Below are positions 9,971-62,548 of a stretch of 64,000 nt of DNA, one piece after another (the first letter of the stretch is position 1; every line of letters starts with the position of its first letter). The notes beneath the pieces were generated by a model that saw only the letters and a list, made by a program, of their open reading frames with translations, did not search any database and was not told the DNA's origin. This stretch comes from an uncultured archaeon (GTDB lineage Archaea > Aenigmatarchaeota > Aenigmatarchaeia > QMZP01 > JACQNV01). Location: assembly GCA_964631205.1 (NCBI GenBank), contig CAZVWU010000006.1:4955-68954 (forward strand). Direction: 5' to 3'. The position numbers and the translations under genes are program-made.

Positions 9971-9976
9971 TTTTCT

Positions 9977-30769: not shown

Positions 30770-30880
30770 GTAAATTCCTTTCTTTTGGGTTATAAGGTCG
30801 TGTCTGGTAGACACGCGACATCTCATCACCCATCAGAATAGAAGATTATGACTTTTCTTTCTCGAAAGAAAAGGGTATAT
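30770..30880 (-). repeat. Module A element, intergenic copy with insert 30798..30851
   Basis: Same termini as 5126..5272 and the tRNA-Glu D-loop introns; abuts ATG of next gene. Confidence 0.85.
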
Positions 30881-31505
30881 GGTCTTATCAAAAAACCGTG
30901 ACAAATTCGCCGGCTTCACAGTAAAGGTAGGAATAGTTTTCAGTAAGCTCGGGCTTTCCCCAAACCAATGGACACTAATAAGTTTAATCCCTACTTTTAT
31001 TGCACTCTATTTTTTAATAAAAGAGTCTTTTTTGGCAGCTGCAATACTGTTTATTGTGGCCTCGTTCATCGATATTGTGGACGGATCTGTTGCAAAAGTG
31101 ACAGGGAGGGTCACAAAATTCGGTGGATACTTAGATAATATAGTTGATAGATATGTAGAAGGGATAATTATATTTGGTTTACTTTTTGCGTCTCTTCCTA
31201 ATTTAGTTATTTCAGGATTCACAATCCCGATATCAGCACTCATTGTTATTTACTTGTTTGGGGGGATGATGACTACTTATACAAAAGCCGCAGCAAAGGA
31301 GAGGGAGATTGTAGAAAAAGAGATGAGAGGAGGTTTGCTTGAAAGGGCTGAAAGGCTGATAATACTTTTTGTCGGAATTTTGTTGGCGATCTTTGATCCT
31401 TTATATCTAACTTATGTAATTGCGCTTCTTGCTGTTTTGACTAATATAACGGCTATACAGAGAATTTTTATGGCTTTCAGATTGTCAAAAGAAAATAAAA
31501 ATTAG
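30879..31505 (+). CDS. CDP-alcohol phosphatidyltransferase (probable archaetidylinositol phosphate synthase)
   Basis: DIVDGSVAK....TKFGGYLDNIVDR motif; adjacent to ino1. Confidence 0.85.
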   Translation: MVLSKNRDKFAGFTVKVGIVFSKLGLSPNQWTLISLIPTFIALYFLIKESFLAAAILFIVASFIDIVDGSVAKVTGRVTKFGGYLDNIVDRYVEGIIIFGLLFASLPNLVISGFTIPISALIVIYLFGGMMTTYTKAAAKEREIVEKEMRGGLLERAERLIILFVGILLAIFDPLYLTYVIALLAVLTNITAIQRIFMAFRLSKENKN

Positions 31506-31506
31506 A

Positions 31507-32175
31507 TTAACTGTACAGTTTTATAATGGCCGGGAGTTCTTCAAAACTTGTAATAACATGTGTTGCTCCAGCTGATCTTAATTCAGCTTCGCTAAGCATA
31601 CCCTTTCCTTTCCCTGTTCTTCCGACAGTGATAATCTTGTCTTCGTCTATCTTGCTAAGTTCAACATCTTTCCCCGAATCTCCTGTAAAGACAATTCTTC
31701 TAGGAACCCAAAGCTCGTCAGCTCTTTTTATATGGTCGCTTTTAACTCCGTATTCTGTTCCCCAAACAGCATCGAAATGGGTAAGTATTCCGTGCCTCTT
31801 CAGAAGAGCTGATGTAACATCTGTCTCTGTGCCTGTGTTAATCAAAATTGGAAATCCATATCTTTTTAGTTCAGGTAGTATTTCCTTTATTTCTGGGAAA
31901 AGCTCAGCAGCTTTGTAAACTTCCCGAATTTTCCTTCTGTGGTATTCTGCAGCACAAGCATCTCTAAATCGTTTCTCATATCCTTGGAAAATTGATCCGA
32001 GCTGTTTATCAAAAGAAATGCCTGTAGTTGCATGATATTTTTCTTCAGCTTCATCTTTAGGCATGCCAAAACATTGGTTCATGCAATCAGCAGCCAGTCT
32101 CCCGTGAGCTTCCATTGTGTTTAGTACGTTCCCATCAAAATCGTTCATCAAGACTAACTGTGTTTTGTAACCCAT
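31507..32175 (-). CDS. HAD-superfamily hydrolase (phosphoglycolate phosphatase-like)
   Basis: DFDGN, NTG, K, GDSGKD motifs. Confidence 0.8.
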   Translation of the reverse strand: MGYKTQLVLMNDFDGNVLNTMEAHGRLAADCMNQCFGMPKDEAEEKYHATTGISFDKQLGSIFQGYEKRFRDACAAEYHRRKIREVYKAAELFPEIKEILPELKRYGFPILINTGTETDVTSALLKRHGILTHFDAVWGTEYGVKSDHIKRADELWVPRRIVFTGDSGKDVELSKIDEDKIITVGRTGKGKGMLSEAELRSAGATHVITSFEELPAIIKLYS

Positions 32176-32203
32176 TACACAAATAATACGACAAGACATT
32201 TAA

Positions 32204-32296
32204 GCGCATACCACAGGGGAGCTTATGGACGCAGGCGCTGCTTATGTTACAAATGATTTTAGAACCCTCCTGGAATTTTTAAAGAGTTATGCTTAA
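32204..32296 (+). pseudogene. Orphan 3' fragment of a HAD paralog
   Basis: TGELMDAGAAYVTNDFRTLLEFLKSYA* resembles neighbour's EAELRSAGATHVITSFEELPAIIKLYS*. Confidence 0.55.
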
Positions 32297-32337
32297 GCTT
32301 TATTTTTGGATTTAAACTAAAATCACAATATCTTATC

Positions 32338-33471
32338 ATGAAAACTCTTTACAGTCTTTATGCAATCTTCTCAACAGGCTTTAATCTCGTCTGGAAAATT
32401 TTGCCTGCTTTTCTCGCAGCGTTTCTAGGCGCATTCGATATCTCCCTGATATTCACAGCCTTTTTTGCATCGAGGGTTTTGATTATACCAATTGGGATGA
32501 CCTCTGATAAAATAGGTGCTGTGAAAAGCATAAGGCTGTCTTTTTCTCTAATGATCTTACTGATTTTAGGGTTCCTGTTTTTCTTTGGTGTAAAAAGTTT
32601 CGCTGGCTGGATTCTTTTTGCTCTGGTCGCAGGTGTTATTGTGAACCTGATAGAGATTGCAGCAAATACCATAGCTGCCAGAGAAAAAAAGAAAACTAAG
32701 GCGCTTTTTGGTCTCGAAAGCATGTATCAGGTTGGTGTTGTTCTGGGGCCTATTTTAGGTGGTCTGCTTGCAGCTTCTTTTGGTATGGAGGCTGCTTTGT
32801 TAACCTGGGCTGTTCTCAATATTTTAGGCATCTTTACAACTACCAGATTGAATGTTGAGACTGAGAAGAAAGAAAGGCTTTCAGGCGGATTGTGGCAAGC
32901 AATCAAGGAAAAGAGACTTCTTTTTATTATTGTTCTTATTATAGGCTCTTTTATGACTGGTTTCCTGCAGTCAATGCAGGAACTTATTTTGCCGCTATTT
33001 GCAAAAGAAATTGGTTTCGATATTGCGCAGATAGGTCTGATGATAGGATTGGCTTCTGTTATAACAATTTTTGGGCTTCTGGTGATAGGCAAAAAAGTCG
33101 ATAATGCTCCCAGATTCCATCTTCTATTTATCTTTTTTCTTCTGATGCTGAGCTTCCCTTTAGTAGTCCCTGTTTTTAATGATTTTATTACACTAACAGT
33201 CATAGGCGGGATTTTCCTTATAGGAAGAGCATCCAACCTCAACATCTCCCGCGGCTTTTTCTCAGAATTCAGCGACAAGTACAAGGCGACTGCTATTGGA
33301 ATAGGAGAGACGGTATATTATTTATCAAGGTCTGTTGGCTCGGTCTCAACAGGATTATTGATAAAAGATGTAGGTTATCTTGGAACTTTGTTCTCTATGG
33401 TTGGTATAACTTTTGTTGCACTGATTGGATCGCTAGTTCTGATAGTTTACTCGAAAAGAAAGGGGGTTTAA
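32338..33471 (+). CDS. MFS transporter
   Basis: ~12 TM segments, GMTSDKIG motif, GPILGGLLA. Confidence 0.85.
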   Translation: MKTLYSLYAIFSTGFNLVWKILPAFLAAFLGAFDISLIFTAFFASRVLIIPIGMTSDKIGAVKSIRLSFSLMILLILGFLFFFGVKSFAGWILFALVAGVIVNLIEIAANTIAAREKKKTKALFGLESMYQVGVVLGPILGGLLAASFGMEAALLTWAVLNILGIFTTTRLNVETEKKERLSGGLWQAIKEKRLLFIIVLIIGSFMTGFLQSMQELILPLFAKEIGFDIAQIGLMIGLASVITIFGLLVIGKKVDNAPRFHLLFIFFLLMLSFPLVVPVFNDFITLTVIGGIFLIGRASNLNISRGFFSEFSDKYKATAIGIGETVYYLSRSVGSVSTGLLIKDVGYLGTLFSMVGITFVALIGSLVLIVYSKRKGV

Positions 33472-33495
33472 ATTATTTTCTGTCTAAAAAGACAT

Positions 33496-33846
33496 ATGAT
33501 CAAAGTCCTCTGCGGCGGCAGGTTTAATTTTCTCCATGAAGGCCATGAGTATTTTCTGAAAAAAGCGAAATCTCATGGAGATTATTTAATTGTTGTGATA
33601 GCCCATGATGTTCACAATATAAAAAAATCAGAAACAATCGAGATGGAGAAAAGAAAAGAGAATATAGAGAAATTAAAAATAGCAGATGAAGTTGTGATTG
33701 GGGATTCGGATGATTTTTTCAAAGTTGTTGAAAAATATAAGCCGCAGGTGATTGCGTTGGGTTGGGACCAGAGATTGCCTTTTGATGAAAATAAAATAAA
33801 AAATTTAGGGATAAAGGTTGTGAGTATAGGCAGGCTTGATTATTAG
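33496..33846 (+). CDS. Cytidylyltransferase-family protein (FAD synthase RibL-like)
   Basis: GGRFNFLHEGH, LIVVIAHD, PQVIALGWDQ. Confidence 0.8.
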   Translation: MIKVLCGGRFNFLHEGHEYFLKKAKSHGDYLIVVIAHDVHNIKKSETIEMEKRKENIEKLKIADEVVIGDSDDFFKVVEKYKPQVIALGWDQRLPFDENKIKNLGIKVVSIGRLDY

Positions 33847-34145
33847 CTGGATTTTACATTGGGGTTTATTATTTTGAATCCTCCGTCTGCTTCTATATAC
33901 TCTATCCTGCAGCCTTCTAGGAGTTTCAAATTCCCTTTTGGAATAAAAATTTTCAGGCCATTTTCTTCTAAAACAATTTCATCTTTTGTCGCCTTTTTTT
34001 CAAAATCCATATTGTATACATAAGACACGTGGCCAGCCTTTTCTATTGAGAACCTAAGGCCATATCCTGCAAGTCCTTTTGATTCCATCAGCTCCTTTAT
34101 TTTTTTGGTCGCCTCAGGAGTTATTTCAAGGGTTTTTCCTTCCAT
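33843..34145 (-). CDS. HesB/IscA-fold protein lacking the conserved Fe-S cysteines
   Basis: LEITPEA..KIKEL, GLRF, Y.MDF, GFKIINPN; no GGCxG or CGCG. Confidence 0.75.
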   Translation of the reverse strand: MEGKTLEITPEATKKIKELMESKGLAGYGLRFSIEKAGHVSYVYNMDFEKKATKDEIVLEENGLKIFIPKGNLKLLEGCRIEYIEADGGFKIINPNVKSS

Positions 34146-34198
34146 ATTTATTTCTAACATGTGTTATATGTAAATCAAATCTTTAAATTTGGGTATAG

Positions 34199-35137
34199 AT
34201 GAAAACAATTCTTGTTGCCGGCGGGGGAGGGTTTTTGGGGAGCCACCTCTGTGATTACCTTATAAACAAAGGTGAAAACGTGATTTGTATAGACAACCTG
34301 TTTACAGGCAATAGGAAAAATATTGAACATCTCATAGGGAAGGAAAATTTCCAGTTTCTGATGCATGACATAATAGACCCGCTTTACATGGATGGAATGA
34401 AAATAGACCAGATATACAACCTTGCATGTCCTGCCTCGCCTGTCCATTACCAGTTCAACCCGATCAGGACAGTCAAAGCAAATACTATCGGCGTAATCAA
34501 CATGCTTGGGCTTGCAAAAAGGCAGAAGGCAAGGATTTTGCAGGCATCAACATCGGAAGTTTACGGAGACCCTATAGAACATCCGCAAAAAGAAAGTTAC
34601 AGGGGGAATGTGAACACTATCGGGCCGCGGGCAAATTATGATGAAGGGAAAAGGGTTGCGGAGACCTTGTTTTTTGATTATCATAGGGCACATTCCATGG
34701 AAATAAGGGTTGCGAGAATTTTCAACACATATGGACCCAGGATGGCAGTAAATGATGGAAGGGTTGTCTCCAATTTTATTGTCCAGGCGTTGAAAGGGGA
34801 GGATATTACAATTTATGGCGACGGAAAGCAGACAAGGTCTTTTTGCTATTATTCTGACCTTATAGAAGGGCTTTACAGGTTGATGAATGCTGAAAATTTC
34901 ACAGGGCCTGTGAATTTAGGGAATCCCGGGGAATTTACTATAATGGAGCTTGCAGAAAAAATAATTAAATTAACCGAGTCAAAATCAAAAATAATTTTCC
35001 GCCCGCTCCCTACCGACGACCCCAAACAGAGAAGGCCTGATATAGGGTTGGCAAAAGAAAAGCTTGGCTGGGAGCCGAAAGTTTTTTTGGATCAAGGGCT
35101 TCCTGCTACAATAGAATATTTCAGGAAGGTTTTGTAA
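34199..35137 (+). CDS. UDP-glucuronate decarboxylase-family SDR
   Basis: [40 protein letters not shown]. Confidence 0.9.
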
Positions 35138-35138
35138 T

Positions 35139-35456
35139 ATGAAAATTCTCTGCCTTTTCACTGATATTTTCTTTTTACCTGCAATAAGGGAAGCGTTCAA
35201 GGATCATGAAGTGCAGGTTTTGGAAAATTATAAAGATGAAAAATTCGACCTTCTTATTATAGATATGGACCATTTCCAGAGTTATGACGTGTGCAAAAAA
35301 TTCCCTGAGAAATCTTTCTGCTTTGGGTCTCACATGGATACAAAGAAAATGAAAAAATTCAGGGAAACTGGCTGCAAAAATGTATATCCGAGATCGGTGT
35401 TTTTGAAAAAATTAGAACAGCTTAAGCAATCTTTTCCCCAGTCCCAACATTTGTAA
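35139..35456 (+). CDS. Small hypothetical protein (receiver-like fold possible)
   Basis: DLLIIDM...FGSHMD pattern. Confidence 0.55.
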   Translation: MKILCLFTDIFFLPAIREAFKDHEVQVLENYKDEKFDLLIIDMDHFQSYDVCKKFPEKSFCFGSHMDTKKMKKFRETGCKNVYPRSVFLKKLEQLKQSFPQSQHL

Positions 35457-35682
35457 TGTGTATCACTTTTTTGGGACAGCCGTCTGCGGCCTTTTTGTTT
35501 GAGTCGAAATCTTTTTCTTCGATTAATTTTTCAAACATCTGCGTCTGCTCATTAAAAACAGAAGAACCTTTCATTTTGGCTTTCCCTGTCGGCTCCATCT
35601 CCCATTGGTCTGGCGCGACTGCTGCGCAAGTCCCTGCGCCTATGCATTTTTTCCTGTTATATTCTATTTTGAAAGTTGCCAT
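35422..35682 (-). CDS. Monocluster ferredoxin
   Basis: CIGAGTC...AADGCP. Confidence 0.85.
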   Translation of the reverse strand: MATFKIEYNRKKCIGAGTCAAVAPDQWEMEPTGKAKMKGSSVFNEQTQMFEKLIEEKDFDSNKKAADGCPKKVIHITNVGTGEKIA

Positions 35683-35725
35683 AGATAAAATTAAAATAAA
35701 TTAGTAGATAGGAAATAAAAATTAA

Positions 35726-37675
35726 CTAGCCGCATCCACAGCCGCCAGAAGACTTTTCAGGCTGGCCCCCGCCGCAACAGCCTGTTTCAGGATGCTGTTC
35801 AGAAACTGCTTTGCCTATTTGTATCAAATCTGCTGGTGATGAAGTGTGATTATGGCCTGCTGAGAAGGCTTCCTGTTCAGCTATTGCTTTGTGGCCCCAG
35901 TCAGGCTCTAATTTTGGCTTTTCCTTGAATTTTCTGTATTGGTCGTAATTGGCCTTTATTGCTTTCATCTGCTCTGGTGTCAGCTTCCTGTGATGTTTGT
36001 CGTCAACAAGCTTCTTGCCTGTTTTTGTTTCCCATTGGGATGCGGGTATGCTGTATTTTCTCTGGATTGCGTCCCTGTAAAGCTCTGGGATCACATTGAA
36101 TGTGCAGAACGGCAGGATCCTTCCGTCTGGCGATGCATAATGGATATCACATTTATGGATTCTGTCAATGTCCCAGTTGTAGGGATCCTGGAAGTGCATC
36201 ATCCCTAGGAACAGGGAATTGTGGTGGAAGTCTGCAAGGCCGTGATAATTTCCGCCCTGCATTGCCCCCATGAGCATCTTTTTGATGTGCATCCCTTTTG
36301 GGACATATTTTTTGTCAACAAATTTGTCAAACTTGAACATCAGTCTTGTGAGAGCCCAGCTCTTGCCTATTTTTTTGAATCTTGCTGTCTGGATGTCCCT
36401 TGTCAATTCCCCCAAATAGTTGAAGAATCCTTCCACATCAAAGAACTTTGGCAAAGGTATCATCTTTCCTGTTTCTTTTTCCTTGAAAACATAGGTTGCC
36501 ATTCCACATGCGAAGTGGATGCTCAGCCTGTATTTTGGCTCTGACTTCAGGGCTTCTATAAAGTCTGTGACCTGTTTTGCGCAAGGCACAGGGAACCAGA
36601 ACTCCCTTCCTATCTGGCCATCTGTCTGCTCTTCTATTCTTTTGATTGCTCCGGGTATTGTGATTCTTTGTTCCATTCTTAGCTTCTCGGGCATCCTCCC
36701 TACCAAGGACACTGGCTGGAAATTTACTGAACGAACAACATCTATGTTGCCCATTCCAAACCTGATAATGTCGCCCATTTCATGGTCGTTTACGTTGCCG
36801 ATAACTGTTGGGACCAAAACAACCCCAAGATTGGCCTGCCTGCAGGAGTCTAAAGCGCTCTGGGCTTCCCAGTAATTTTTTGGGTTTGTTGAGGGGCTCA
36901 TTCCGTCAAAGCTCATGTAAAGAACATGCGAGCCTGCTTCCCTTATTTTTTTTGCAAGCTCAACACTTCTTGATAAGTTTATTCCGTTGGTGTTTAACTG
37001 GACATGCTCATATCCTATCTCCCTTGCCGCTTTTATAATGTCAGCCAAGTCCTCCCTTAATGTCGGCTCTCCGCCTGTCAGCTGGACAGCATTTGCGCCT
37101 ACTGGCTTCTCATCCCTCATTCTCTGAAGCATGAATTTTATCTGGTCAAGCGTAGGCTCGTAAATCGGCTCGCCTTCTTTTGCATAGAAGAAGCAATACC
37201 AGCAAGTCAGGTCGCATCGGTTTGTAAGGACAATATTTCCCAATCCTGTATGGGATTCGTGCTCAACGCACAGACCACAGTCATTTGGGCAGTCAATCTC
37301 AAACTCGTTCTTGTCTATATTAGGATTCAAAATCTTTATTCCGGGGTCTTGGAACTTCTCGGCTTTCTTGAACATTCCGTAATCCCCCCAGTACAGTTCC
37401 CTGAATGGGCCGTGTTCTTTGCACTGCTTTGCAAGCCAGACTTTGTCGTCCCTTGCATAAGTCACAGAATCAATCTTCATTTTGTCCCATTTCTCTTCGT
37501 CCACGCATCCCGGACAGAGAGACTGGTGGAATTTGAGTAGCATTCCGCCTTCAGGCACAAGAGGCACTAACGCCTGTTTTCTTTCAATTGTGTAATCCTT
37601 TACATAAGGCGAGGTCGCAACCTCCAGAAATTGCTGTGGTGTCTTTTCAATTGCCTGCGGATATGCGGTTCCCAT
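35726..37675 (-). CDS. tes: Radical SAM protein of the tetraether lipid synthase (Tes/GDGT-MAS, MJ0619) family
   Basis: SLCPGC..CKEHG, CPNDCGLC..H.SH, TNRCDLTCWYCF, HFACG, MHFQD.YN.D..RI.KC.IHY.SPDGRILPFC. Confidence 0.8.
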   Translation of the reverse strand: MGTAYPQAIEKTPQQFLEVATSPYVKDYTIERKQALVPLVPEGGMLLKFHQSLCPGCVDEEKWDKMKIDSVTYARDDKVWLAKQCKEHGPFRELYWGDYGMFKKAEKFQDPGIKILNPNIDKNEFEIDCPNDCGLCVEHESHTGLGNIVLTNRCDLTCWYCFFYAKEGEPIYEPTLDQIKFMLQRMRDEKPVGANAVQLTGGEPTLREDLADIIKAAREIGYEHVQLNTNGINLSRSVELAKKIREAGSHVLYMSFDGMSPSTNPKNYWEAQSALDSCRQANLGVVLVPTVIGNVNDHEMGDIIRFGMGNIDVVRSVNFQPVSLVGRMPEKLRMEQRITIPGAIKRIEEQTDGQIGREFWFPVPCAKQVTDFIEALKSEPKYRLSIHFACGMATYVFKEKETGKMIPLPKFFDVEGFFNYLGELTRDIQTARFKKIGKSWALTRLMFKFDKFVDKKYVPKGMHIKKMLMGAMQGGNYHGLADFHHNSLFLGMMHFQDPYNWDIDRIHKCDIHYASPDGRILPFCTFNVIPELYRDAIQRKYSIPASQWETKTGKKLVDDKHHRKLTPEQMKAIKANYDQYRKFKEKPKLEPDWGHKAIAEQEAFSAGHNHTSSPADLIQIGKAVSEQHPETGCCGGGQPEKSSGGCGCG

Positions 37676-37757
37676 ACTAACCAGCTCCTTAATAACTAGT
37701 TTTAGAAGTTTTAATAAGTATTAAATACTGGGGTTTGGGGATATATAAACCTGTCAG

Positions 37758-37770
37758 ATAACAGTGTTAT
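37758..37770 (-). promoter_or_regulatory. Palindromic operator candidate ATAACACTGTTAT (copy 3)
   Basis: 8 bp upstream of TTTATATA on the minus strand, before the tes-like gene. Confidence 0.6.
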
Positions 37771-37852
37771 TTATGCCAACTTTCTTTAGATAATTATGCA
37801 TGTCAGAGTAACAAAGCCAAACCTTTTAAAATCCAGAATTCAAAGAGTTAAC

Positions 37853-38121
37853 ATGTTAGATGAAGATCTAAGTCCACTTAAGAGGCGCTTCAGGGAAACA
37901 CCAAATGATGCAGGTCTTGCTCTAGAGTATTCAAGAGCTTTGGAGCGAATAGGGAATAGAGATGATGCTCTAATGGTATTACTTGACGCATATTAATGGT
38001 ATTACTTGACGCATATTATAGGTCAAACAAAGATGACCCACTTTTAGGGGAGTTAACCCGAAGGATGGATGATATACACCCATCTGCATATTTGTTACGC
38101 GAGGCCCGCAATTGGGATTAG
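37853..38121 (+). pseudogene. Small TPR-like gene frameshifted by a 23-bp tandem duplication
   Basis: taatggtattacttgacgcatat at 37971..37993 and 37994..38016; removing one copy restores an 81-aa ORF. Confidence 0.65.
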
Positions 38122-38468
38122 TGAGATAATCAAACCCGCATATTTTGTCTCACGTTCAACAGCTCATTCAGGCTGCTCAGGAAGGCCAGAATGCTAGAAT
38201 TTAAGGGGTCAAAATATATTCCCCCTAACCTTGTATAAACATTTGTTATTGGTAAAAGCCAACTAATTTTCCCAAGCCAAATATATTTTGGAAATTCTCG
38301 GATATACAAGCTTTTTCTCACTTTTGAAAAACGATTTCTGCGAAGTTCCGAAAAAAAATTCTGCATTTATAAAGGGCTGAAACTAAAATATTATCAGTTG
38401 TTTTTGAAAAACAAAATTTTATTTTGAAGAGGCTATGTATAGCGGTTTTAAAAGGAAATAGGTAAACA

Positions 38469-41695: not shown

Positions 41696-41709
41696 ATTAC
41701 TCGGGCTTG

Positions 41710-42258: not shown

Positions 42259-42327
42259 TGATAAATTTAACGCAAGCCCTGCGTCATACTGTGCCTACGC
42301 TTCGCTTCGGCATTTTTTCTTGCAGAA

Positions 42328-42355
42328 AAAACACATAACAGCGATTAAATGCAAT
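42328..42355 (+). other. dif/Xer-like site 2: AAAACACATAA-CAGCGA-TTAAATGCAAT
   Basis: 11-6-11 TAA-N6-TTA architecture. Confidence 0.65.
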
Positions 42356-42427
42356 CGCTGGCTCGCTAACTAATGCAAAGAAATCTAAGAAAATATTAAA
42401 AGGCTGGGCGTCTTAAAAGAAAACAAT

Positions 42428-42817
42428 TTATTTCCTTCTTTGTTCAATATAACGCCTTGCACCTTCACTTCCTTCTTGTGATGCAATTTGTCCTGCTTTG
42501 AAAGCATCTTCTGGAGAAACTGAGAACATATCTCTTCCGAAAATTGGATGACTTACATCAGGAAGAGCTCCAAACCATTTATCAGCAGTTGCTTTATCAT
42601 AATATCCAACAATATATCCTATGTTGCTATTTGCACATGCTTCTGGATTTGCTCTTACATTTTCAGAATCTCCGTGTTGTCTGAGATATCCAACATATTC
42701 TTGATAGAATTGTATCATTTCTGTTGGGTCTCTTAATGTTTCAACTGCTGTAAACACAGGGTTTCTTCCAGGTTTTGCTTTTTCAAGCCTTTCTAATAGA
42801 CTCATTTTGTATGCCAT
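42428..42817 (-). CDS. Hypothetical protein (cassette 2 cargo)
   Basis: 129-aa ORF with its own TTTATAAA box at ~42839..42846. Confidence 0.7.
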   Translation of the reverse strand: MAYKMSLLERLEKAKPGRNPVFTAVETLRDPTEMIQFYQEYVGYLRQHGDSENVRANPEACANSNIGYIVGYYDKATADKWFGALPDVSHPIFGRDMFSVSPEDAFKAGQIASQEGSEGARRYIEQRRK

Positions 42818-42972
42818 ACATTTAGTAGTAGGTTAAGCTTTATAAAGCTTTCGGTTGTTCACTACTCTTACGATACGATGCCCCGCCCTAAAACGAACGC
42901 TCGCCAGCGACTTCTTCGTCGGGCTTCGCCCTCCTCGACCACGTTGCACTCTCCTCAGCCTTCGGCTTCTTC

Positions 42973-43000
42973 GGGGCATTTAACAGGCATTAGTCGACAT
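42973..43000 (+). other. dif/Xer-like site 3: GGGGCATTTAA-CAGGCA-TTAGTCGACAT
   Basis: 11-6-11 TAA-N6-TTA architecture. Confidence 0.65.
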
Positions 43001-43016
43001 AAGCCTCCTAAAGGGC

Positions 43017-43274
43017 TCACAATCCTTTGTATATTCTTGAGCGGTGATCTACAACAAGAATTTCCAATGCTTTGGTTTTCTGATCGACGTCTATGAGAAC
43101 ACGCCAATCACCGACTCGCAGTTTGTACATCTTAAGATTTGGATAGTAATCCAAATAAATTAATGGGTCATCTTTGATGCTGTCTACCTTTTTGACAATT
43201 CGGCTAGAAACAGTAGGGTCACATTTGCGAAGAAATTCTTGGGTTCTTGGATGCCATTTAATCGTGTATGTCAT
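43017..43274 (-). CDS. relE: RelE/ParE-family toxin (cassette 3 cargo)
   Basis: YTIKW...RIVKKV..IKDDP...YKLRVGDWRVL...VDHRSRIY. Confidence 0.85.
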   Translation of the reverse strand: MTYTIKWHPRTQEFLRKCDPTVSSRIVKKVDSIKDDPLIYLDYYPNLKMYKLRVGDWRVLIDVDQKTKALEILVVDHRSRIYKGL

Positions 43275-43277
43275 CTG

Positions 43278-43478
43278 TTATTTTGCAAACTCCTTCATCA
43301 TTTCTTCATGTGCGACAAACTTTGTTTTGATCTCTTTGCGGGCTTGTTTTATCTGTTCAATCGCTTCTTCTCTTAGCTCAGGTTCGTGGAGAAGAAGTTC
43401 CCTTATTTCATGCACGTCTTTTTTTACCTCTGCGACTTCCCTATGAAGCTGTTCCAATGTAGTTTGCATAATTTTCAC
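43278..43478 (-). CDS. Putative antitoxin of the RelE-type pair
   Basis: Small helical ORF directly upstream of the toxin, ending FVAHEEMMKEF. Confidence 0.7.
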   Translation of the reverse strand: MKIMQTTLEQLHREVAEVKKDVHEIRELLLHEPELREEAIEQIKQARKEIKTKFVAHEEMMKEFAK

Positions 43479-43562
43479 CTTTTTATAGTTGGTTTGGAGT
43501 ATTTAAAAGTTCGCCCTTTCTCCGGCTTAGCTCTGCTGAAACCCCTTAAAGAGATCCCATAG

Positions 43563-43590
43563 GTGTTGCATGACAGAGGAAAGAGGCAAT
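43563..43590 (+). other. Degenerate site 4: GTGTTGCATGA-CAGAGG-AAAGAGGCAAT
   Basis: Left arm matches site 1 left arm at 8/11; right arm ends GCAAT like sites 1 and 2. Confidence 0.5.
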
Positions 43591-43650
43591 TCTTAGTTAT
43601 TTGAACGGGATTTTATAAACCATTGAAGAATATTATAGTATGGCTAATTT

Positions 43651-45789
43651 ATGCCCAGCATAAAGCAGATCAGGAAAAGGGACGGGAGGATTGTAAAGTT
43701 TGAGAAATCGAAAATTACAGACGCTGTGCTGAAGGCGCTGACTGCGACTGGGGAACAGGACGGAATACTTGCAGACAGGTTGGCAGGCAAAGTTGTTGAG
43801 CATCTGGAAAGCCAGACTCCGAAAAACAGGATCCCGAATGTTGAGGAGATACAGGATATTGTTGAGCATGTGCTTATGTCTGAAGGGCACGCGAAGACTG
43901 CGAAAGCGTATATTTTGTACAGGAGAGAGAGGGCTAAGATAAGGGAGGCGAAAGCCCTTCTAGGTGTGCAGGATGACCTGAAGCTGACTATAAATGCGGC
44001 AAAGGTTCTGGAAAAAAGGTATTTGAAAAGGGATGGGGATGGCAAGGTTGCAGAAACCCCAAGCCAGATGTTCAGGAGGGTTGCGGACAATGTCGCAAAG
44101 GCAGATGAGTTTTATGGGGCAAAAAAAGAGGAGATAAAAAAAATTGCTGATGAGTTTTATGGCATCATGTCTAAACTAGAGTTCCTGCCAAATTCCCCCA
44201 CCCTGATGAATGCAGGGACTCCAATACAGCAGCTGTCTGCTTGCTATGTGATGCCTATAGAGGATTCCATTGCAGGGATTTTCGACACGCTAAAAAATAC
44301 AGCCCTGCTCCAGCAGACAGGCGCAGGCACTGGGTTTTCTTTTTCAAGGATAAGGCCAAGGGGGAGCCTTGTCAGGTCAACAGGCGGATCGTCGTCAGGC
44401 CCTGTTTCCTTCCTGAAAGTTTACAATTCTGTGACAGACGCAATAAAATCCGGTGGCAAGAGAAGGGGAGCGAACATGGGCATATTAAGGGTTGACCATC
44501 CTGACATAGTCGAGTTCATAATCTCAAAAGAAAAGGATGAGAGCCTTGCAAGCTTCAACATCTCTGTTGCAATTACGGATAAGTTTATGAAAGCTGTCCA
44601 GGAAAATAAAACTTATAATTTAATTGATCCCCATACAGGGGAGCTTGTAAATAAATTGGATGCTGGGAGAGTTTGGGACCTGCTTATGACAATGGCATGG
44701 AAGTCAGGAGATCCTGGGATTGTTTTCATTGACAGGATAAACCAGACAGAGTCAAACCCAACACCGAAGCTCGGGATGATAGAATCAACTAACCCGTGTG
44801 GTGAAACTCCATTATTGCCGTACGAGTCCTGCAATTTGGGTTCGATAAATCTTTCCAAGATGGTGAAGGAGGAAGCAGGCAAAAGCGCCGTAGACTGGGA
44901 TAAAATAAAGGATGTTGTCTGGAAGGCCGTCCATTTTCTGGATAATGTGATCGACATGAACAAATACCTTATGCCGGATATTGAGAGCATCACAAAGGCT
45001 AACAGGAAAATAGGGCTGGGTGTGATGGGATTTGCAGATCTGCTTATAGAGCTCTGGATTCCTTACAATTCTGAGGAGGCTGTGAAAATAGCTGAAAAAG
45101 TGATGAAGTTTATAGACGAGGAGTCTAAAAATGCGTCAGCTGAATTGGCAAAGGGAAGGGGACAGTTCCCCAACTTCAGAAAAAGCATCTGGCCAAAGAA
45201 AGGGTTTAAAATGTTAAGGAACGCTGTGACAACAACAATTGCCCCAACAGGGACAATTTCAATCATCGCCGGCTGCTCTTCCAGCATAGAGCCGCTTTTT
45301 GCTGTCTCGTATGTCAGGAATATTCTCGACCAGACAGAGCTTCTGGAAGTGAACCCTATATTTGAAAAGGTTGCCAAGGAAAAGGGTTTCTATTCAGAAG
45401 AGCTTATGAGGCTTGTTGCAAGGCAAGGGTCTATACAGCATATAAAGGAAATTCCAGAAGATGTAAAGAAGATTTTTGTGACTGCCCATGACATAGGGCC
45501 TGAAGACCATGTGAACATACAGGCTGCTTTCCAGAAGCATATTGATCTGGGGGTTTCAAAAACAGTTAACTTCCCGAACGAGGCTACTGTTGAGGATGTT
45601 GAAAAGGTTTTCCTGATGGCGTACAAGAGCGGATGCAAAGGCATAACAATTTACAGGGACAGGAGCAAAAGCGAACAAGTCCTGAATATTGAACTGGTCA
45701 GGAGTAAGATCAGGCCAAGGATGAGGAGATTAAAAACCGGGAAAAACAAGCCTTCTGATTTATCTGCCAACAAGTGCGACGTGTGTTGA
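43651..45789 (+). CDS. nrdJ: Class II ribonucleotide reductase with ATP cone (second copy)
   Basis: IRKRDG, PNSPTLMNAG, LSACYV, RRGANM, TNPCGE, IAPTGT, KGITIYRD, terminal CxxC. Confidence 0.92.
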   Translation: MPSIKQIRKRDGRIVKFEKSKITDAVLKALTATGEQDGILADRLAGKVVEHLESQTPKNRIPNVEEIQDIVEHVLMSEGHAKTAKAYILYRRERAKIREAKALLGVQDDLKLTINAAKVLEKRYLKRDGDGKVAETPSQMFRRVADNVAKADEFYGAKKEEIKKIADEFYGIMSKLEFLPNSPTLMNAGTPIQQLSACYVMPIEDSIAGIFDTLKNTALLQQTGAGTGFSFSRIRPRGSLVRSTGGSSSGPVSFLKVYNSVTDAIKSGGKRRGANMGILRVDHPDIVEFIISKEKDESLASFNISVAITDKFMKAVQENKTYNLIDPHTGELVNKLDAGRVWDLLMTMAWKSGDPGIVFIDRINQTESNPTPKLGMIESTNPCGETPLLPYESCNLGSINLSKMVKEEAGKSAVDWDKIKDVVWKAVHFLDNVIDMNKYLMPDIESITKANRKIGLGVMGFADLLIELWIPYNSEEAVKIAEKVMKFIDEESKNASAELAKGRGQFPNFRKSIWPKKGFKMLRNAVTTTIAPTGTISIIAGCSSSIEPLFAVSYVRNILDQTELLEVNPIFEKVAKEKGFYSEELMRLVARQGSIQHIKEIPEDVKKIFVTAHDIGPEDHVNIQAAFQKHIDLGVSKTVNFPNEATVEDVEKVFLMAYKSGCKGITIYRDRSKSEQVLNIELVRSKIRPRMRRLKTGKNKPSDLSANKCDVC

Positions 45790-45793
45790 TTCT

Positions 45794-46369
45794 ATGAAAA
45801 CTGCGATTAAAGTTTACATAGCAGGCAAGGTCAATCCTAATTCAGTTTTTGGAACTCATAAATGGCGGGATAAATTCTGCGAAGTGCTATCAAAAAAATC
45901 TGGGTTTGAAATAATAAATTTGGATCCAACTAAACACGAAAAGGATTTTGATCTTGACGAAGGAAACGCAAAGCTTATTTTTGGACGAGATAGTTTCATG
46001 ATAAAGATATCTGATATGGTGGTGGTAAATCTTACAGACGATATCAGTGTTGGCGGCTCCCAGGAGATGTTGATAGCCAAATATTACAAAAAACCGCTTG
46101 TCGGGTTGGCTCCCAAAGGAGGGAAATTCAACAAGGAAGAAAAAGAAATTCTAGGCAGAACTTACAAAAACTGGGTACATCCATTTGTGGCAATCCCCTG
46201 CGATAAAGTCGTTGAAGATATTGATCAGTTGGCTTTTTTTATCAAAACTTTCTTTTCAGGCGAAAACGATACTAAAACAAAGAACATCTCTGTCATAGAC
46301 GATGCTGAGGCGTATTACAAGAAAAAACATTATAAAAAAGACAAGCAACTCCATGTAAAGGAGAAATAA
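45794..46369 (+). CDS. Nucleoside 2-deoxyribosyltransferase-like protein
   Basis: VYIAG, WR, RD..IK.SDMVV, SVGGSQEM.IA...KP. Confidence 0.6.
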   Translation: MKTAIKVYIAGKVNPNSVFGTHKWRDKFCEVLSKKSGFEIINLDPTKHEKDFDLDEGNAKLIFGRDSFMIKISDMVVVNLTDDISVGGSQEMLIAKYYKKPLVGLAPKGGKFNKEEKEILGRTYKNWVHPFVAIPCDKVVEDIDQLAFFIKTFFSGENDTKTKNISVIDDAEAYYKKKHYKKDKQLHVKEK

Positions 46370-46378
46370 CACTGTTAT
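46366..46378 (+). promoter_or_regulatory. Palindromic operator candidate ATAACACTGTTAT (copy 4)
   Basis: Upstream of the TrmB-family regulator gene. Confidence 0.55.
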
Positions 46379-46531
46379 TCCACATTTAGGCAAAAAGGAC
46401 ATCACCTTTAGGTGACAAAAAGCTTTATAAAGCTTACTGCCTTAACTTGTGCATGGGAAAATTGTTCCCAGCAGTAAGTGGTTACCCTGAATAAGTATTT
46501 AAATACAGGAATTTAATAATATTAAACGGTT

Positions 46532-47311
46532 ATGGTAGTTACAAATGAAGTGTTGGATGCGCTGAAAAGCATTGGTTTGAACCTTTACGAGAGGAAAATT
46601 TATGTCTCTCTTTTAGCCAAAGGCATAGCCACAGCCGGTGAAGTTTCAGGCATTGCAAAAGTCCCCAGATCACGTTCCTATGATATTCTTGAAAGCCTTG
46701 CTGACAAGGGGTTTGTTGTCTTGCAGCCAGCCAAGCCAATAAGGTATGTTGCTTTGGAACCGAGGGATGCTTTGGAAAGGATGAAGGTAACACTAGAAAG
46801 GAAGCACACTGAATTGCAGGAAAGAGTCGATAGGCTTGCAGCTTCTCCTATTTTGACTCAGCTTGAAGCTGTATACAAAGAAGGGTTAAGCCTTGTCCAG
46901 CCATTCGAGATGACAGGCACAATTAAAGGCAAGGATTCAGTAAACCAGCACCTTAGGTCTCTATTCAAGAAAGCAAAAGGCAGCATAACAATTGTCACAA
47001 CAAAAAATGGCCTCGCAGACCTTCATTCTTCGCAGCACACAATTCTAAAGAAAATCGCAAAGAAAGGGGTCAAGATAAAGATTTATGCCCCTTTGGACAA
47101 GGCATCTCCTGATTTTGGCGGGATTGCAGAGGTTAATCATATTGAACAGCCTGCAGGAAGGATATGCACAATAGACAACGACCATGTTGTCCTCGCTTTG
47201 ACAGACGACACCAAAACGCACACATCCCAGGACGTTGTTTTCTGGGCCCAATCTCCCCATGTCGTGAAAGATATAATGGAGCCTTTCTTCAACCAAGTTG
47301 TGAAGAAATAG
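46532..47311 (+). CDS. TrmB-family transcriptional regulator
   Basis: LKSIGLNLYERKIYVSLL...VPRSRSYDILESL..KGFV. Confidence 0.9.
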   Translation: MVVTNEVLDALKSIGLNLYERKIYVSLLAKGIATAGEVSGIAKVPRSRSYDILESLADKGFVVLQPAKPIRYVALEPRDALERMKVTLERKHTELQERVDRLAASPILTQLEAVYKEGLSLVQPFEMTGTIKGKDSVNQHLRSLFKKAKGSITIVTTKNGLADLHSSQHTILKKIAKKGVKIKIYAPLDKASPDFGGIAEVNHIEQPAGRICTIDNDHVVLALTDDTKTHTSQDVVFWAQSPHVVKDIMEPFFNQVVKK

Positions 47312-47462
47312 TACTTTTTCTTTCTATGCACTCTATCCAAAGAAAACCTACACTAAAAGAAAACATGCAATTGGTTTCAGATAATTTTTTCTTTAAGAGA
47401 TGAATTAGAAAAAACAATAAACTTATAAGCCTACTTGCTCCTAACTTAAAAACTATTGAAGT

Positions 47463-49523
47463 ATGTATACCCTCATAATCAGCGAAAAGCCGTCAGCTGC
47501 AAAGAAACTAGCCGAATCGCTGGCTGAAGGGAGCGTCAGTGAGCAGCCAAAAAATGGGGCGGTTGTGTATAAAATAAAGAGGGGCGGCAAAGACATAATC
47601 ATAGCCTCTGCTGCAGGCCATTTGTTTGTTCTGGCTGAAAAAAATTCGGGCAGGGATTGGACTTATCCTGTATTTAATATAGACTGGGTTCCGATTTTTG
47701 TCGCAAATAAAAACAACACATGGTCGAGAAAGTACTTCGAGGCTCTCCAATCGCTTTCAAATGAAGCGGTTGATGTTGTCTCTGCGACAGACTATGATAT
47801 TGAAGGGAGCGTGATAGCATACAATATAATCAGGTTCATCTGCAACAAAACAAACGGGAGGAGGATGAAGTTTTCCACATTGACGAAATCCGACCTTATT
47901 GAAGCATATGAAAACTCTTCGCCCAACCTCGATTTCCCCCAGATAGAAGCCGGAATTGCCAGGCACTTTCTCGATTATTTCTGGGGAATTAATATTTCAA
48001 GGGCTTTGACGCTTGCGTTAAGGGCAGCAAGCGGTTATAAGATCCTGTCAACAGGCCGTGTGCAGGGACCGACCCTTGAAATACTTGAAAAAAGGCAGAG
48101 GGAGATTGAAATATTCAAGCCTGAACCCTATTGGGAAATCCTTGCAAAAACGCCTGATTTCACAGCAGAGCATGAGAAAGGGAAATTCTGGAAAAAGGAA
48201 GAGGCCGACCTGGTATTCCAAAAAATAAAGGGGGTTGAAAAAGCCTCTGTAGAACGGGTTGAAAAAAAAGAAAGCAAGCTGCAGCCTCCGTTCCCATTCG
48301 ACCTTACAACACTACAGAGGGAGGCATACAGCCTTTTCGGTTTCTCCCCAAAACAGACCCTTGACACAGCGCAGTCGCTTTATGAGAGGGGATCCATATC
48401 CTATCCGCGAACATCATCCCAAAAGCTTCCTGCAAAACTAGGCTATGTGGAAATAATAAAAACCCTGTCCAAAAAAATCCAATATTCCAGTCTCTGCGAA
48501 AAGTTGCTGGCAAAACCCCAGATAAAGCCAAACGAAGGCCTGAAAGACGACCCTGCCCACCCGTCTATTTTCCCGACTCAGGACATTCCAAATATGAAAG
48601 AGCTTACCCATCAGCAGGCAAAATTATACGACCTGATTGTGAAAAGGTTTTTGTCTGTGTTTGCGGACGCTGCTGTCAGGGAATCTGTAACAGCAATCCT
48701 TGACATCAAAGGCGAGAAATTTATTGCAAGGGGGGTGAGGACCGTTCAGGCCAATTGGATAGACTTCTACAAGCCTTATGCAAAGTTTAAAGAGCAAACG
48801 CTCCCTCCAATGAAAAAGGGGGATTGTATAGCCATAAAAAAAATCGAGATGCTGCAAAAACAGACTCAACCGCCTGCAAGGTTTACACAGGGCACGATAC
48901 TTAAAGAGCTTGAAGATTTGGGGCTGGGAACAAAAGCCACAAGAGCCCTCATATTGCAAACCCTTTATGACCGCGGCTACATTAAAGACAAGTCAATAAC
49001 CGTGACCAAGCTTGGTGAAGCTGTTGTCACTTCTCTTGAAAGATATTGTCCGGACATAGTTTCTGTTGACCTTACAAAGCAGTTTGAAGAAGGCATGGAA
49101 GCAATACAGGATGAAAAGAAAACCAAAGAAGAGATCATAAAGTCTGCCCAGGAGGCTCTGGCAAAAACACTGAAAATTTTCAAGAAGAATGAAAAAAATA
49201 TAGGCTCTGACCTTATGAAGGGGATAAAGGAAGTTATGAGGGAAGAATCTACGATAGGAAAATGCGTATGCTCAGGCGACCTTGTCATAAGGATGTCAAA
49301 GGACAAAAAGAGGTTTGTGGGCTGCACTGGTTACCCAAACTGCACACAGACATTCTCGCTGCCGCATAAGGGCACAGTGGCAATAATAAGGGAGACCTGT
49401 TTGAAATGCGGCCTCAAGGTTGTTTCAGTGAAATTATACAAAAAACGCCCATGGAAGCTTTGCGTCAGGTGCGGATTTGTGAATAAAAAGAAAGGTGAAG
49501 AAAAACCTCCAGAAAATCCGTAA
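47463..49523 (+). CDS. topA: DNA topoisomerase I (type IA)
   Basis: LIISEKPSAA, ATDYDIEG, STGRVQGPTL, ISYPRT, GLGTKATR, C-terminal zinc ribbons. Confidence 0.95.
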   Translation: MYTLIISEKPSAAKKLAESLAEGSVSEQPKNGAVVYKIKRGGKDIIIASAAGHLFVLAEKNSGRDWTYPVFNIDWVPIFVANKNNTWSRKYFEALQSLSNEAVDVVSATDYDIEGSVIAYNIIRFICNKTNGRRMKFSTLTKSDLIEAYENSSPNLDFPQIEAGIARHFLDYFWGINISRALTLALRAASGYKILSTGRVQGPTLEILEKRQREIEIFKPEPYWEILAKTPDFTAEHEKGKFWKKEEADLVFQKIKGVEKASVERVEKKESKLQPPFPFDLTTLQREAYSLFGFSPKQTLDTAQSLYERGSISYPRTSSQKLPAKLGYVEIIKTLSKKIQYSSLCEKLLAKPQIKPNEGLKDDPAHPSIFPTQDIPNMKELTHQQAKLYDLIVKRFLSVFADAAVRESVTAILDIKGEKFIARGVRTVQANWIDFYKPYAKFKEQTLPPMKKGDCIAIKKIEMLQKQTQPPARFTQGTILKELEDLGLGTKATRALILQTLYDRGYIKDKSITVTKLGEAVVTSLERYCPDIVSVDLTKQFEEGMEAIQDEKKTKEEIIKSAQEALAKTLKIFKKNEKNIGSDLMKGIKEVMREESTIGKCVCSGDLVIRMSKDKKRFVGCTGYPNCTQTFSLPHKGTVAIIRETCLKCGLKVVSVKLYKKRPWKLCVRCGFVNKKKGEEKPPENP

Positions 49524-49718
49524 TCACAGCTGCCTTTTTCTTGCTTCTATTGGTATGAGGCCTTCTTTCCATTCAAGATTGGCTATATCAATGGGGTTTG
49601 AGGCTCCTTTTGGAACCTTTACCAATGGGGGCGCGCCCTGAGCTATTTGCAAAGCCCTGGATGAAATAATCCTCACCTTCTCATATTTCGAACTGATATT
49701 TCCATTTGGCATATTCAT
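49524..49718 (-). CDS. rpoK: RNA polymerase subunit K (Rpo6)
   Basis: SKYEKVRIISSRALQIAQGAP. Confidence 0.9.
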   Translation of the reverse strand: MNMPNGNISSKYEKVRIISSRALQIAQGAPPLVKVPKGASNPIDIANLEWKEGLIPIEARKRQL

Positions 49719-49767
49719 ATAACCCTTACCTTCTAAATAACCAGCATATAAATATAAACCTTTTAGA

Positions 49768-50553
49768 TCAGCCTATATACCTTGTCTCGTCTTTTGCAGG
49801 CTTCCCTTCCTTTGTCAGCTGCACAAGGGCCTTTTTCTGGAGGGATTCAACTTTCTTTATGAAGTTTTCCATTTCCTTTACTCTCTGGTCTAGCTTGCCC
49901 ATGTCTATTTTCAAATCCATTAGCTTTACCAAAGTTGATAATACCACCTCAGCTGATTTTGGATCTGTAACTATCGGGAATCCAGAAGTCTCGCCAAGCA
50001 GGCACATCCCTTTCATTCCACGTTCCTTTCCAAGGCCAAGAAGCAGGCCTGCTGCGCCCACAATATAACCTACCTTTTCACCTGCATTGAAATCTATTCC
50101 ATGCTTTTTATAATTTTCAATAAGCTCTTTATGGGTCACTGCCCCAACAACTTTTGGGGTTTCCTCTATTTCGCCTGTTGCCAGGCCTCCGACAGTTATT
50201 ATCTCAGAGCAGCCAAAGGTTGTTGCCAGTTCAAGAATTTTTTCAGAGACCTCATAATGTCCTTGGGGGGTTAGAGACTGGCAATCTCCAACCAATAATA
50301 CAAGGTCCCTCTCGCCCTTTTTCCTTGCCTTATAATAATAGAACTCGTTGTTCGGGAGGTGTATCATGTAATTATCATGCAGCATCACAAAAGGGAAAAA
50401 CCATTTCGAATACATTGTTGCAAACTTTTTAGCTTTCAGTTCTTCAACTAAATAGCCGACAGCGACCCTCCCTATATTCCCTACACCAGGAAGCCCTTCA
50501 ATCAGAACAGGGTTTGCCAGCTTCGGCTTTTCCTTGTAGATTATTTGAGTCAT
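49768..50553 (-). CDS. PAC2-family proteasome assembly chaperone
   Basis: LIEGLPGVGNIG, GDCQ, IVGAAGLLL, LLGETSG..DP, C-terminal YIG. Confidence 0.88.
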   Translation of the reverse strand: MTQIIYKEKPKLANPVLIEGLPGVGNIGRVAVGYLVEELKAKKFATMYSKWFFPFVMLHDNYMIHLPNNEFYYYKARKKGERDLVLLVGDCQSLTPQGHYEVSEKILELATTFGCSEIITVGGLATGEIEETPKVVGAVTHKELIENYKKHGIDFNAGEKVGYIVGAAGLLLGLGKERGMKGMCLLGETSGFPIVTDPKSAEVVLSTLVKLMDLKIDMGKLDQRVKEMENFIKKVESLQKKALVQLTKEGKPAKDETRYIG

Positions 50554-50600
50554 AAAAATCAGTCAATCAGTCTAATATTGCTTTTCAACATTAATAAATG

Positions 50601-50915
50601 CTATTTGGCATCCTCACCAGGGTATTTGCCTCTTTTTGCAAGGGAGAGATAGACTCTAAGATTGTATTCCCTCCATTGAACCATAAACTCCAGCATTTCT
50701 CTTTCTTCATCAGGTATTTCAGTTTCCGATAAGCGGTTCCTGAAATCTTTGATATATTCCAGGCAGCCATTTATGGTTCTGGCAGTATACTGTCTTCCTT
50801 CTTCTGTTGACACGTTATATCTTCTCTCCAGAATCGGGGCTTCCACTCTTGAAACGCATTCCCTTAATTCTGATGCAAGAGACCCTGCATTTTCAGACCA
50901 TTTGTAAAGTTCCAT
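50601..50915 (-). CDS. Hypothetical protein
   Basis: ATG 3 nt after the tRNA-Glu(CTC) 3' end; the longer track start overlaps the tRNA. Confidence 0.55.
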   Translation of the reverse strand: MELYKWSENAGSLASELRECVSRVEAPILERRYNVSTEEGRQYTARTINGCLEYIKDFRNRLSETEIPDEEREMLEFMVQWREYNLRVYLSLAKRGKYPGEDAK

Positions 50916-50918
50916 TGA

Positions 50919-51204
50919 TGCTCCCAACGGGATTTTCAAATGCTGGATCCACTTCGGTTATGTAAACCTTCTTTTGGGATCTCAAACCTTTTCTTGGAAG
51001 AAAAGGGCTGAATTTGAACCCGTGTCAGGGGATCGAGAATCCCCTATCCTTGCCGGTTCCTATATTTCTTATAATCCTGCAACTTTTCTTTCTTGGGTTA
51101 TAAGGTCAGCATCTCATCAGAGATGATGAGATGTCTCGTGTCTACGAGACACGACTTCTTTCTTTTTTTAAAAGAAAGAAGGGTATATGCTAGACGATGG
51201 GAGC
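50919..51204 (-). tRNA. tRNA-Glu(CTC) with 132-nt D-loop intron (51057..51188) and 80-nt T-loop intron (50933..51012)
   Basis: GCTCCCA/TGGGAGC acceptor, GGGGA-TTCTCGA-TCCCC arm; BHBs TCTA/TAGG and TTCA/TGAA. Confidence 0.88.
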
Positions 51205-62547: not shown

Positions 62548-62548
62548 C

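Follow-up and report, generated by a model that had tools for sequence, protein, structure and literature searches.

A short two-hairpin element, H, found in either orientation at one bond of a dispersed repeat in tRNA introns of an uncultured Aenigmatarchaeota archaeon

The window and its tRNA-Glu genes

The DNA considered here is a stretch of 64 kb (hereafter the window) from an uncultured archaeon of the Aenigmatarchaeota, comprising positions 4955-68954 of contig C6 in a genome, G000, of 897 kb (17 contigs, about 41% G+C, 94% complete). Window coordinates are counted from the first letter of the stretch, while places elsewhere in the genome are given by contig (C1 and so on). The first intron of two tRNA-Glu genes in the window is formed by a dispersed repeat, here called module A, and the subject of this report is a second element, H, a non-coding pair of hairpins found inside module A, at one and the same bond and in both orientations, as well as at other places in the genome.

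Several large introns are carried by the tRNA genes of the window. The tRNA-Glu(CTC) gene (50919-51204, minus strand) has two, and ARAGORN calls it as tRNA-Glu(ctc) after scripted removal of both; the tRNA-Glu(TTC) gene lies at 63225-63435 on the plus strand. Neither is called by ARAGORN or Rfam in the raw window, and the inserts described below are part of the reason why standard tRNA finders miss them. A third multi-intron gene, Ser/Leu-like, at about 62313-62548 (plus strand) is likewise uncalled by ARAGORN, and Rfam matches to the three are partial or lacking.

Module A and the mirror rule

On the tRNA-sense strand module A consists of TATACCC, a pyrimidine run (Y), a short loop, the reverse complement of that run (R), a single G, the linker CCTTATAACCC and a terminal tract, X''. 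Copies begin tRNA introns, or lie on the other strand and end exactly at start codons (GGGTATATG). The window holds four. One, complete from TATACCC through the Y/R hairpin, junction and CCTTATAACCC to the mirror tract, occupies the start of intron 1 of tRNA-Glu(CTC) (51084-51187, minus strand); a second (30777-30879, minus strand) ends at the ATG (30879) of an open reading frame (ORF) resembling CDP-alcohol phosphatidyltransferase; a third (5133-5272, minus strand) occupies a divergent intergenic region; and these three are filled, that is, interrupted between G and CCTTATAACCC. The fourth (63242-63293, plus strand), in intron 1 of tRNA-Glu(TTC), has an empty junction. There are 18 exact copies in G000, and CCTTATAACCC sites number 16, 7, 8 and 8 in the four other genomes of its taxonomic family, against 0-1 for a reversed control.

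The tract X'' does not pair with Y. Laid parallel to Y and in register it is complementary to it, and thus the mirror image of R. Of 43 copies, 35 have a mirror that is perfect over 9 nt, and this extends over nine different Y variants; the antiparallel match of X'', even with the best register chosen, reaches that in only 15 of the 43. Mean mirror agreement is 8.42 within copies and 6.09 between copies, and none of 10000 permutations reached the observed value. Applied genome-wide to G000, the rule finds 26 loci, compared with 5 for an antiparallel control, and these fall into four linker classes: CCTTATAACCC, GGTATAACC, (T)GTTGAGATCCC and TATACCGTACCC/ATACAGTACCC. Modules of every class obey it, in the window at 5133-5272, 14077-14119, 30777-30879, 50955-51015, 51084-51187, 62346-62399 and 63242-63293, and show the intrastrand-triplex layout on both strands.

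The layout of module A is that of a class II purine-motif intrastrand triplex, the triple helix itself being predicted. Class II of Holder et al. 2015 (PMC4666352), the purine motif, has one pyrimidine arm and two purine arms, of which the second is the mirror of the first. Module A shares with the bacterial BoxC/TMECO repeats treated there the three segments on one strand and the mirrored second purine arm; it differs in being A/T-rich and in having a second connector of 9-12 nt, where the search of that paper allowed 1-6 nt, and unlike those repeats it is archaeal, forms the start of tRNA introns and is host to nested elements. The same source states that purine-motif triplexes do not form in RNA, and that the pyrimidine-rich complementary strand of TMECO might form a pyrimidine-motif triplex, an option that by geometry exists for module A too.

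Outside tRNA genes the modules that end at the start codon (GGGTATATG) have TTATAA some 29 nt upstream (window 30787-30881; C1:9120, C1:148047, C5:11638, C9:17527), and at this distance from the start TTATAA looks like the promoter element of a near-leaderless archaeal mRNA. The insert in the 30.8-kb module displaces TTATAA, and the decayed end of the insert reads TTATGA at nearly the same distance.

Inserts at the module A junction

The three filled copies had been described in the earlier note as carrying inserts that run from TC to GA and sit at one point, and this is borne out at 51106-51154 (49 nt), 30798-30851 (54 nt) and 5154-5244 (91 nt). On the plus strand all three begin with TC and end with GA, between ...GGGTTATAAGG and C(T)TT..., the pyrimidine arm of the module hairpin; read on the other strand, the insertion bond lies between the last G of that hairpin and CCTTATAACCC. 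The empty version that had been reported from the tRNA-Glu(TTC) intron is also as described, with nothing at 63270|63271. That the insert is a mini-element distinct from its host is supported, though its supposed inverted ends prove to be merely the closing pairs TC...GA of the terminal hairpins, with no classical terminal inverted repeat.

The 49-nt insert is an intact H (plus strand) made up of hairpin a, CATCTCATCA-GAGA-TGATGAGATG, and hairpin b, TCGTGTCT-ACG-AGACACGA. It stands in orientation I, with hairpin b adjoining the module hairpin, and a second copy, identical at 49 of 49 positions, is found at C4:95755-95803. In the 54-nt insert (plus strand) the orientation is II, in which hairpin b adjoins CCTTATAACCC in the frame of the module, and hairpin a has decayed. 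The 91-nt insert (plus strand), at the same bond, is a composite: an H-type hairpin, TCGTGAG-GCTTTGA-CTCACGA, adjoins the linker, and a second H-type unit is interrupted by a further element, G, at about 5184-5225. Positions 1-24 of this insert are identical to C4:96063-96086 and positions 39-69 match copies of G on C1, C2, C6 and C8, so that three levels of nesting are present (G within an H-type unit within module A). Folded as single-stranded DNA and compared with shuffled sequences, the 49-mer gave z values of -5.55/-4.89 and the 91-mer -4.76/-4.82, with none of 200 shuffles as good; values for the 54-mer, with its decayed second hairpin, were -2.62/-1.22.

Element G was seen also outside the composite. 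It is a hairpin, GGAC-GAAAC...GTTTC-CAGC, which in either orientation can occupy the Y/R loop of module A; besides the copy within the 91-nt insert (about 5184-5225), the family was seen at C1:-48426 and C2:-7013 of G000 and at loci L030, L034, L042-L044, L046 and L051. At the metagenome locus L149, H lies inside the loop of G itself.

The inverted match between 30797-30828 and 51124-51155, on which the idea of two orientations was founded, stands on a direct count of 30/32 (a 32-nt inverted pair, 94% complementary), for which chance would supply about 5e-7 instances in 64 kb at equal base frequencies. Over its full length the 54-mer scores 28.5 when aligned to the reverse-complemented 49-mer and -2 when the two are aligned directly. 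The two hairpins therefore stand in reversed order, and the match is more than a palindrome read twice.

Both orientations at the same bond might suggest a segment that a recombinase flips in place, as had also been proposed, but this can be given hardly any credence. The inverted repeats that flank the insert are only 3 nt long (GTC...GAC), and copies in opposite orientation have diverged in sequence and come from different loci or genomes. The Resolvase family gave no serine recombinase in G000, and the sole tyrosine recombinase, a single Phage_integrase match, is on C1 and not on the window contig. Three runs of one study cover the 51-kb region as assembled contigs, with breaks at 51021, 51113 and 51138; in independent unitigs of the likely source sample, 8 and 17 nt of the 49-mer are reached, showing assembled junctions only, and contigs hide rare forms. 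Contig joints at 51105 have sides of 20 nt, which also fit other copies of the module. The two orientations in the window are best read as the products of separate insertion events, not the states of a switch.

The H family

Across 18 distinct copies from ten genomes, H has the consensus TC-nn-CATCTC...GAGATG-TC-TCGTGTC-loop-GAGACACGA. It is 43-60 nt long, non-coding, and closed at its ends by the TC...GA pairs of its two hairpins. Hairpin a (TC-nn-CATCTC...GAGATG) is variable in its interior, and two of its base pairs are altered in both partners, one pair in 8 and the other in 4 of the 18 distinct copies; hairpin b (TCGTGTC-loop-GAGACACGA) is nearly invariant outside the loop. Longer inserts are strings of TC...GA-closed hairpins linked by GATG or TC.

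Twelve H loci were found in G000. Six lie at the module A bond, namely the three window inserts and C1:9001-9119, C4:95755-95803 and C4:95966-96086, which makes this junction the commonest landing site of H in the genome. The proposal that H targets module A stands as regards a recurrent, exact bond used in either orientation, and falls as regards specificity, half of the loci being elsewhere: in a tRNA intron (C1:94943), in a second tRNA intron within a module hairpin's loop (C4:85894), in a class B module on C2 (GGGA|TCTCAA), in a vapB/vapC spacer (C3:73747), after a stop codon (C10:26121), and within an amino-acid permease-like ORF (C1:145345-145398), where a tandem hairpin of 54 nt is in frame and free of stops and adds 18 residues (SCAPAHEMQRTSRADAAR). 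No counterpart to this last case appeared among 24 two-hairpin copies in relatives, none of which is within a long open frame, the longest stop-free stretch being 561 nt.

With up to three mismatches allowed, a 27-nt core of H is present in 10 of 91 genomes of the order, and reversed-pattern controls gave no matches. The exact core was found in 16 stretches of a collection of 185,579 species, under the titles 'archaeon', 'uncultured archaeon' or Ca. Aenigmatarchaeota metagenome-assembled genome, and in 31 metagenome stretches; a viral contig collection gave no match to the core, and a metagenome scan none to the tRNA-Glu/module joint. H is known so far only from Aenigmatarchaeota-type archaea.

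Conservation of this kind raises the question of whether the hairpins are functional sites, for instance for protein binding or as a processing signal, that are maintained by selection, with spread being secondary. The core is identical in two families, variation is limited to the loops, and the base pairs covary. The explanation is nevertheless very unlikely, given that at three loci one sister species has the insert and the other does not, that the contexts are unrelated (coding sequence, introns and spacers, on either strand), that decayed copies exist (30798-30851), and that 81 of the 91 genomes of the order lack H.

A further short repeat, GTnCTTTCTAGTGCAGGTCTTT, occurs at 51802-51859, 62435-62461 and 9973-9994; it is in tandem near one tRNA and inverted in the intron of another.

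Filled and empty sites in related genomes

The insertion state of H changes between sister species. The sister species of G000, here G001, has a precise empty site for the permease insert (..CACAAA|AGGCTAC) and another for the vapB/vapC insert, both without duplication; and the target-site duplication that characterises a classical miniature inverted-repeat transposable element (MITE) is absent from the filled/empty pairs of module A, the permease and vapB/vapC alike. At the 30.8-kb locus G001 has no module, and a spacer of 29 nt is found instead. In the orthologous tRNA-Glu(CTC) intron of G001 the junction is empty and G occupies the Y/R loop, while in G000 the junction is filled and the loop is empty; the exons of the gene are invariant between the two. 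These comparisons establish that H moves as DNA and without target duplication.

In G001 the tRNA-Glu(CTC) gene (L089, G001:C34) has an additional intron of 60 nt directly after the anticodon loop, which the G000 gene (50919-51204) lacks, and its T-loop intron has a different module linker class.

Among the 91 genomes of the order, the sequence GA|CCTTATAACCC that marks a filled junction occurs in 10 places, eight of them real (six in G000 and one each in G002, a member of another genus, and G003) and two of them chance matches in coding sequence. Empty modules are the majority: in G000 only 6 of the 18 exact module A copies are filled. Use of the bond in both directions, as first suggested by the window, is confirmed by G002, in which the identical 49-mer stands at the same bond but opposite in orientation to the 51-kb copy. 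Orientation II, with hairpin b beside the linker, is found in six module variants. Orientation I is seen in one lineage of module A (the 51-kb copy and C4:95804); a hand-made tabulation also shows it in classes B and C, at the junction that corresponds there to hairpin|linker (L131, L070 and L135).

For six of the eight filled modules the nearest outer sequence is that of an empty module, only the 51-kb copy and C4:95804 being mutually nearest, so the insertions are largely independent. This bears on the possibility that a single ancestral insertion was copied from filled to empty modules by gene conversion through the flanking module sequence. Conversion would account for the identical insert and near-identical outer module of the 51-kb copy and C4:95804, and for the identical 24-nt hairpin beside the linker in the copies at 5154-5244 and C4:96087; but it cannot reverse orientation, the inserts vary in content and in length (49, 54, 64, 91, 119 and 120 nt), and the filled modules, mostly closest to an empty one, retain their own Y/R/mirror variants. 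Gene conversion is judged quite improbable.

Target preference

When all distinct insertion contexts are considered together, 18 of 23 are a purine|pyrimidine step, for which the background frequency is 0.215; the binomial p of about 1e-8 overstates the effect, since not every context is independent and six of the 23 are similar composite arrays. Positions -4 to -1 hold mostly purines, and positions +1, +3 and +4 mostly pyrimidines. The class B site GGGA|TCTCAAC is occupied in the same orientation in seven of seven copies, and H is found in hairpin loops at L061, L064, L072, L146 and L149 (both by hand tabulation). H lands preferentially at purine|pyrimidine steps in the single-stranded parts, connectors or loops, of other structured repeats. 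In module A the target, AAAG|CCTT, nearly equals its reverse complement, and insertion in both directions can be explained by this.

These same facts may be read as survivorship. H would then insert at random, and only those copies that spare the fold or function of module A, at the edge of the linker or in the hairpin loop, would be retained, giving the appearance of a single point. Each of the two kinds of nested insert does occupy a connector of the module, one the hairpin|linker junction and the other the Y/R loop; CCTTATAACCC does not vary as a linker and so is perhaps constrained; and a coding copy that is in frame and without stops is typical of filtered insertions. Yet all eight filled copies of module A use one bond and not others that should be tolerated (for example, between linker and mirror tract), the purine|pyrimidine preference holds outside modules too, and selection alone does not predict that seven of seven class B sites be filled in one orientation. 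Survivorship as the whole explanation is accordingly thought unlikely, though it has to be taken seriously.

Mechanism of insertion

On balance, we favour the interpretation of H as a nested, REP/MITE-like, non-autonomous mobile hairpin element that has been inserted repeatedly at the module A bond and prefers connectors and loops. According to this interpretation, H inserts as DNA at purine|pyrimidine steps in connectors and loops of other structured repeats, and one hot spot is the bond of module A at which hairpin and CCTTATAACCC meet, open to insertion in either direction. The landing site would be chosen by the insertion machinery and not by later selection, and that machinery may act on folded or single-stranded DNA. 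An insert in a tRNA intron should leave together with the intron, and would thus cost nothing; elsewhere H would presumably persist where it is tolerated, as it does in frame in a loop of the permease.

Several observations weigh against this interpretation, besides the interdependence of the insertion contexts already mentioned. Families with coding DNA only about 70% identical share the 27-nt core unchanged, which could mean function and not recent movement; the hot spot could come about because copies survive where they do no harm, and not by targeting; and no polymorphism within one population was seen in the contigs. No mobilising enzyme was found: the genome G000, 94% complete, has no match to Y1_Tnp (PF01797), TnpB-type proteins, DDE_Tnp_1, rve, Resolvase, RVT_1 or DUF559, in a search confined to these families. 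In the order as a whole, Y1 transposase is present in 17 of 91 genomes and does not track with H, occurring in 3 of the 10 genomes with H and 14 of the 81 without; nor is there a TCGTG...CACGA hairpin or GAGATG beside the gene at three Y1 loci (G001, G070 and G029).

A single TCGTG...CACGA hairpin lies about 1 kb from a Y1 gene, in L118. As a partner for H the Y1 transposase was rejected, by its lack of co-occurrence across the order and by the lack of shared ends. The ends of H share only TC...GA and a weak TCTC, G000 has no resident transposase of the DDE_Tnp_1, rve, Y1 or TnpB-type families with whose terminal inverted repeats they could agree, and the left flanks vary (AAAG, GGGA, GAAA, GTAG and others), so that the fixed tetra- or pentanucleotide found 5' of insertions of the IS200/IS605 type is missing.

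It might be supposed instead that the insert is a nested intron at the RNA level, which the archaeal splicing endonuclease excises, since tRNA introns contain half of the copies in G000 and one copy is in frame in coding sequence. In RNA folds of eight insert-plus-flank sequences, on either strand as relevant, the inserts form separate, independent hairpins, and no bulge-helix-bulge (two 3-nt bulges with a 4-bp helix between them) appears at their borders; no reverse transcriptase (RVT_1) that might fix an RNA-level insertion was found in G000. An RNA intron is therefore considered highly improbable. Readings of CTGATGA/TGATGA as hammerhead, K-turn or C/D-box motifs were rejected by eye, the motifs lying inside perfect stems with no GAAA core or bulge, and the only Rfam matches at gathering level in the window are tRNAs.

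A bolder scheme is that nesting at three levels is guided by structure. Module A would be a mobile repeat that folds, as a single strand, into a hairpin with a third strand (an intrastrand triplex); H would recognise folded junctions and loops of such repeats in single-stranded or extruded DNA and integrate into them, in either direction and without a conventional transposase; G would behave likewise in hairpin loops, those within H-type units included, with H able in turn to enter the loop of G; and the three together would build and remodel the tRNA introns of these archaea. We regard this as doubtful; if it were true, it would provide a concrete route for the origin and growth of archaeal introns that encode no protein.

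These findings bear on the arrival of archaeal tRNA introns. In both tRNA-Glu genes intron 1 consists of a dispersed repeat known also from places outside tRNA genes, a second element has entered this repeat at a single bond in both directions, and a sister species shows the state before and after at the same intron, so that intron growth by nested selfish DNA becomes directly observable. The 49-mer and its target of about 60 nt, with its predicted triplex fold, are also defined substrates with which to look for the enzyme.

Comparison with known systems

Full-text searches of the literature gave no account of the H family. The program MITE-Tracker requires target duplications. A census of MITEs which used it, and which reports a high density of them in some DPANN genomes (PMC11602168), may for this reason not list H.

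The repetitive extragenic palindromic elements of proteobacteria (REP, BIME and REPIN) are mobilised by RAYT and have a conserved flank, GTAG. H resembles them in being a short imperfect palindrome with conserved stems and variable loops, single or in arrays, in both orientations, non-coding, and gained or lost between close relatives; it differs in its archaeal host, in the want of a Y1/RAYT gene in G000, in its flank (GATG / TC...GA and not GTAG), and in its presence inside tRNA introns and, once, in coding sequence. Elements of the IS1397/ISKpn1 type insert into the loops of the palindromic units of BIMEs; as full insertion sequences they have a transposase and give target duplications. The relation of H to module A is similar, in that a defined point of another small structured repeat is the preferred target and repeats become nested, but H is only 43-60 nt long, non-coding and without duplication.

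The PATE of haloarchaea are miniature elements derived from IS200/IS605, and have in common with H their hairpin-bearing ends, the absence of target duplication and an archaeal host; H has no fixed target tetranucleotide, no TnpA in G000 and no co-occurrence with TnpA in the order. Rickettsia palindromic elements can sit in frame in protein genes, as the 54-nt permease insert does, but H is much shorter, and such a position is exceptional for it (1 of 12 loci in G000, and 0 of 24 two-hairpin copies of relatives in a long open frame). Finally, the transposed tRNA introns of Thermoproteales, reportedly described by Fujishima and colleagues in 2010, are like the module A introns in that related sequences turn up in more than one tRNA gene and not at the same position, a sign that introns move; the module A introns differ from them in that their core is a dispersed repeat found also outside tRNA genes, inside which a second and a third element are nested.

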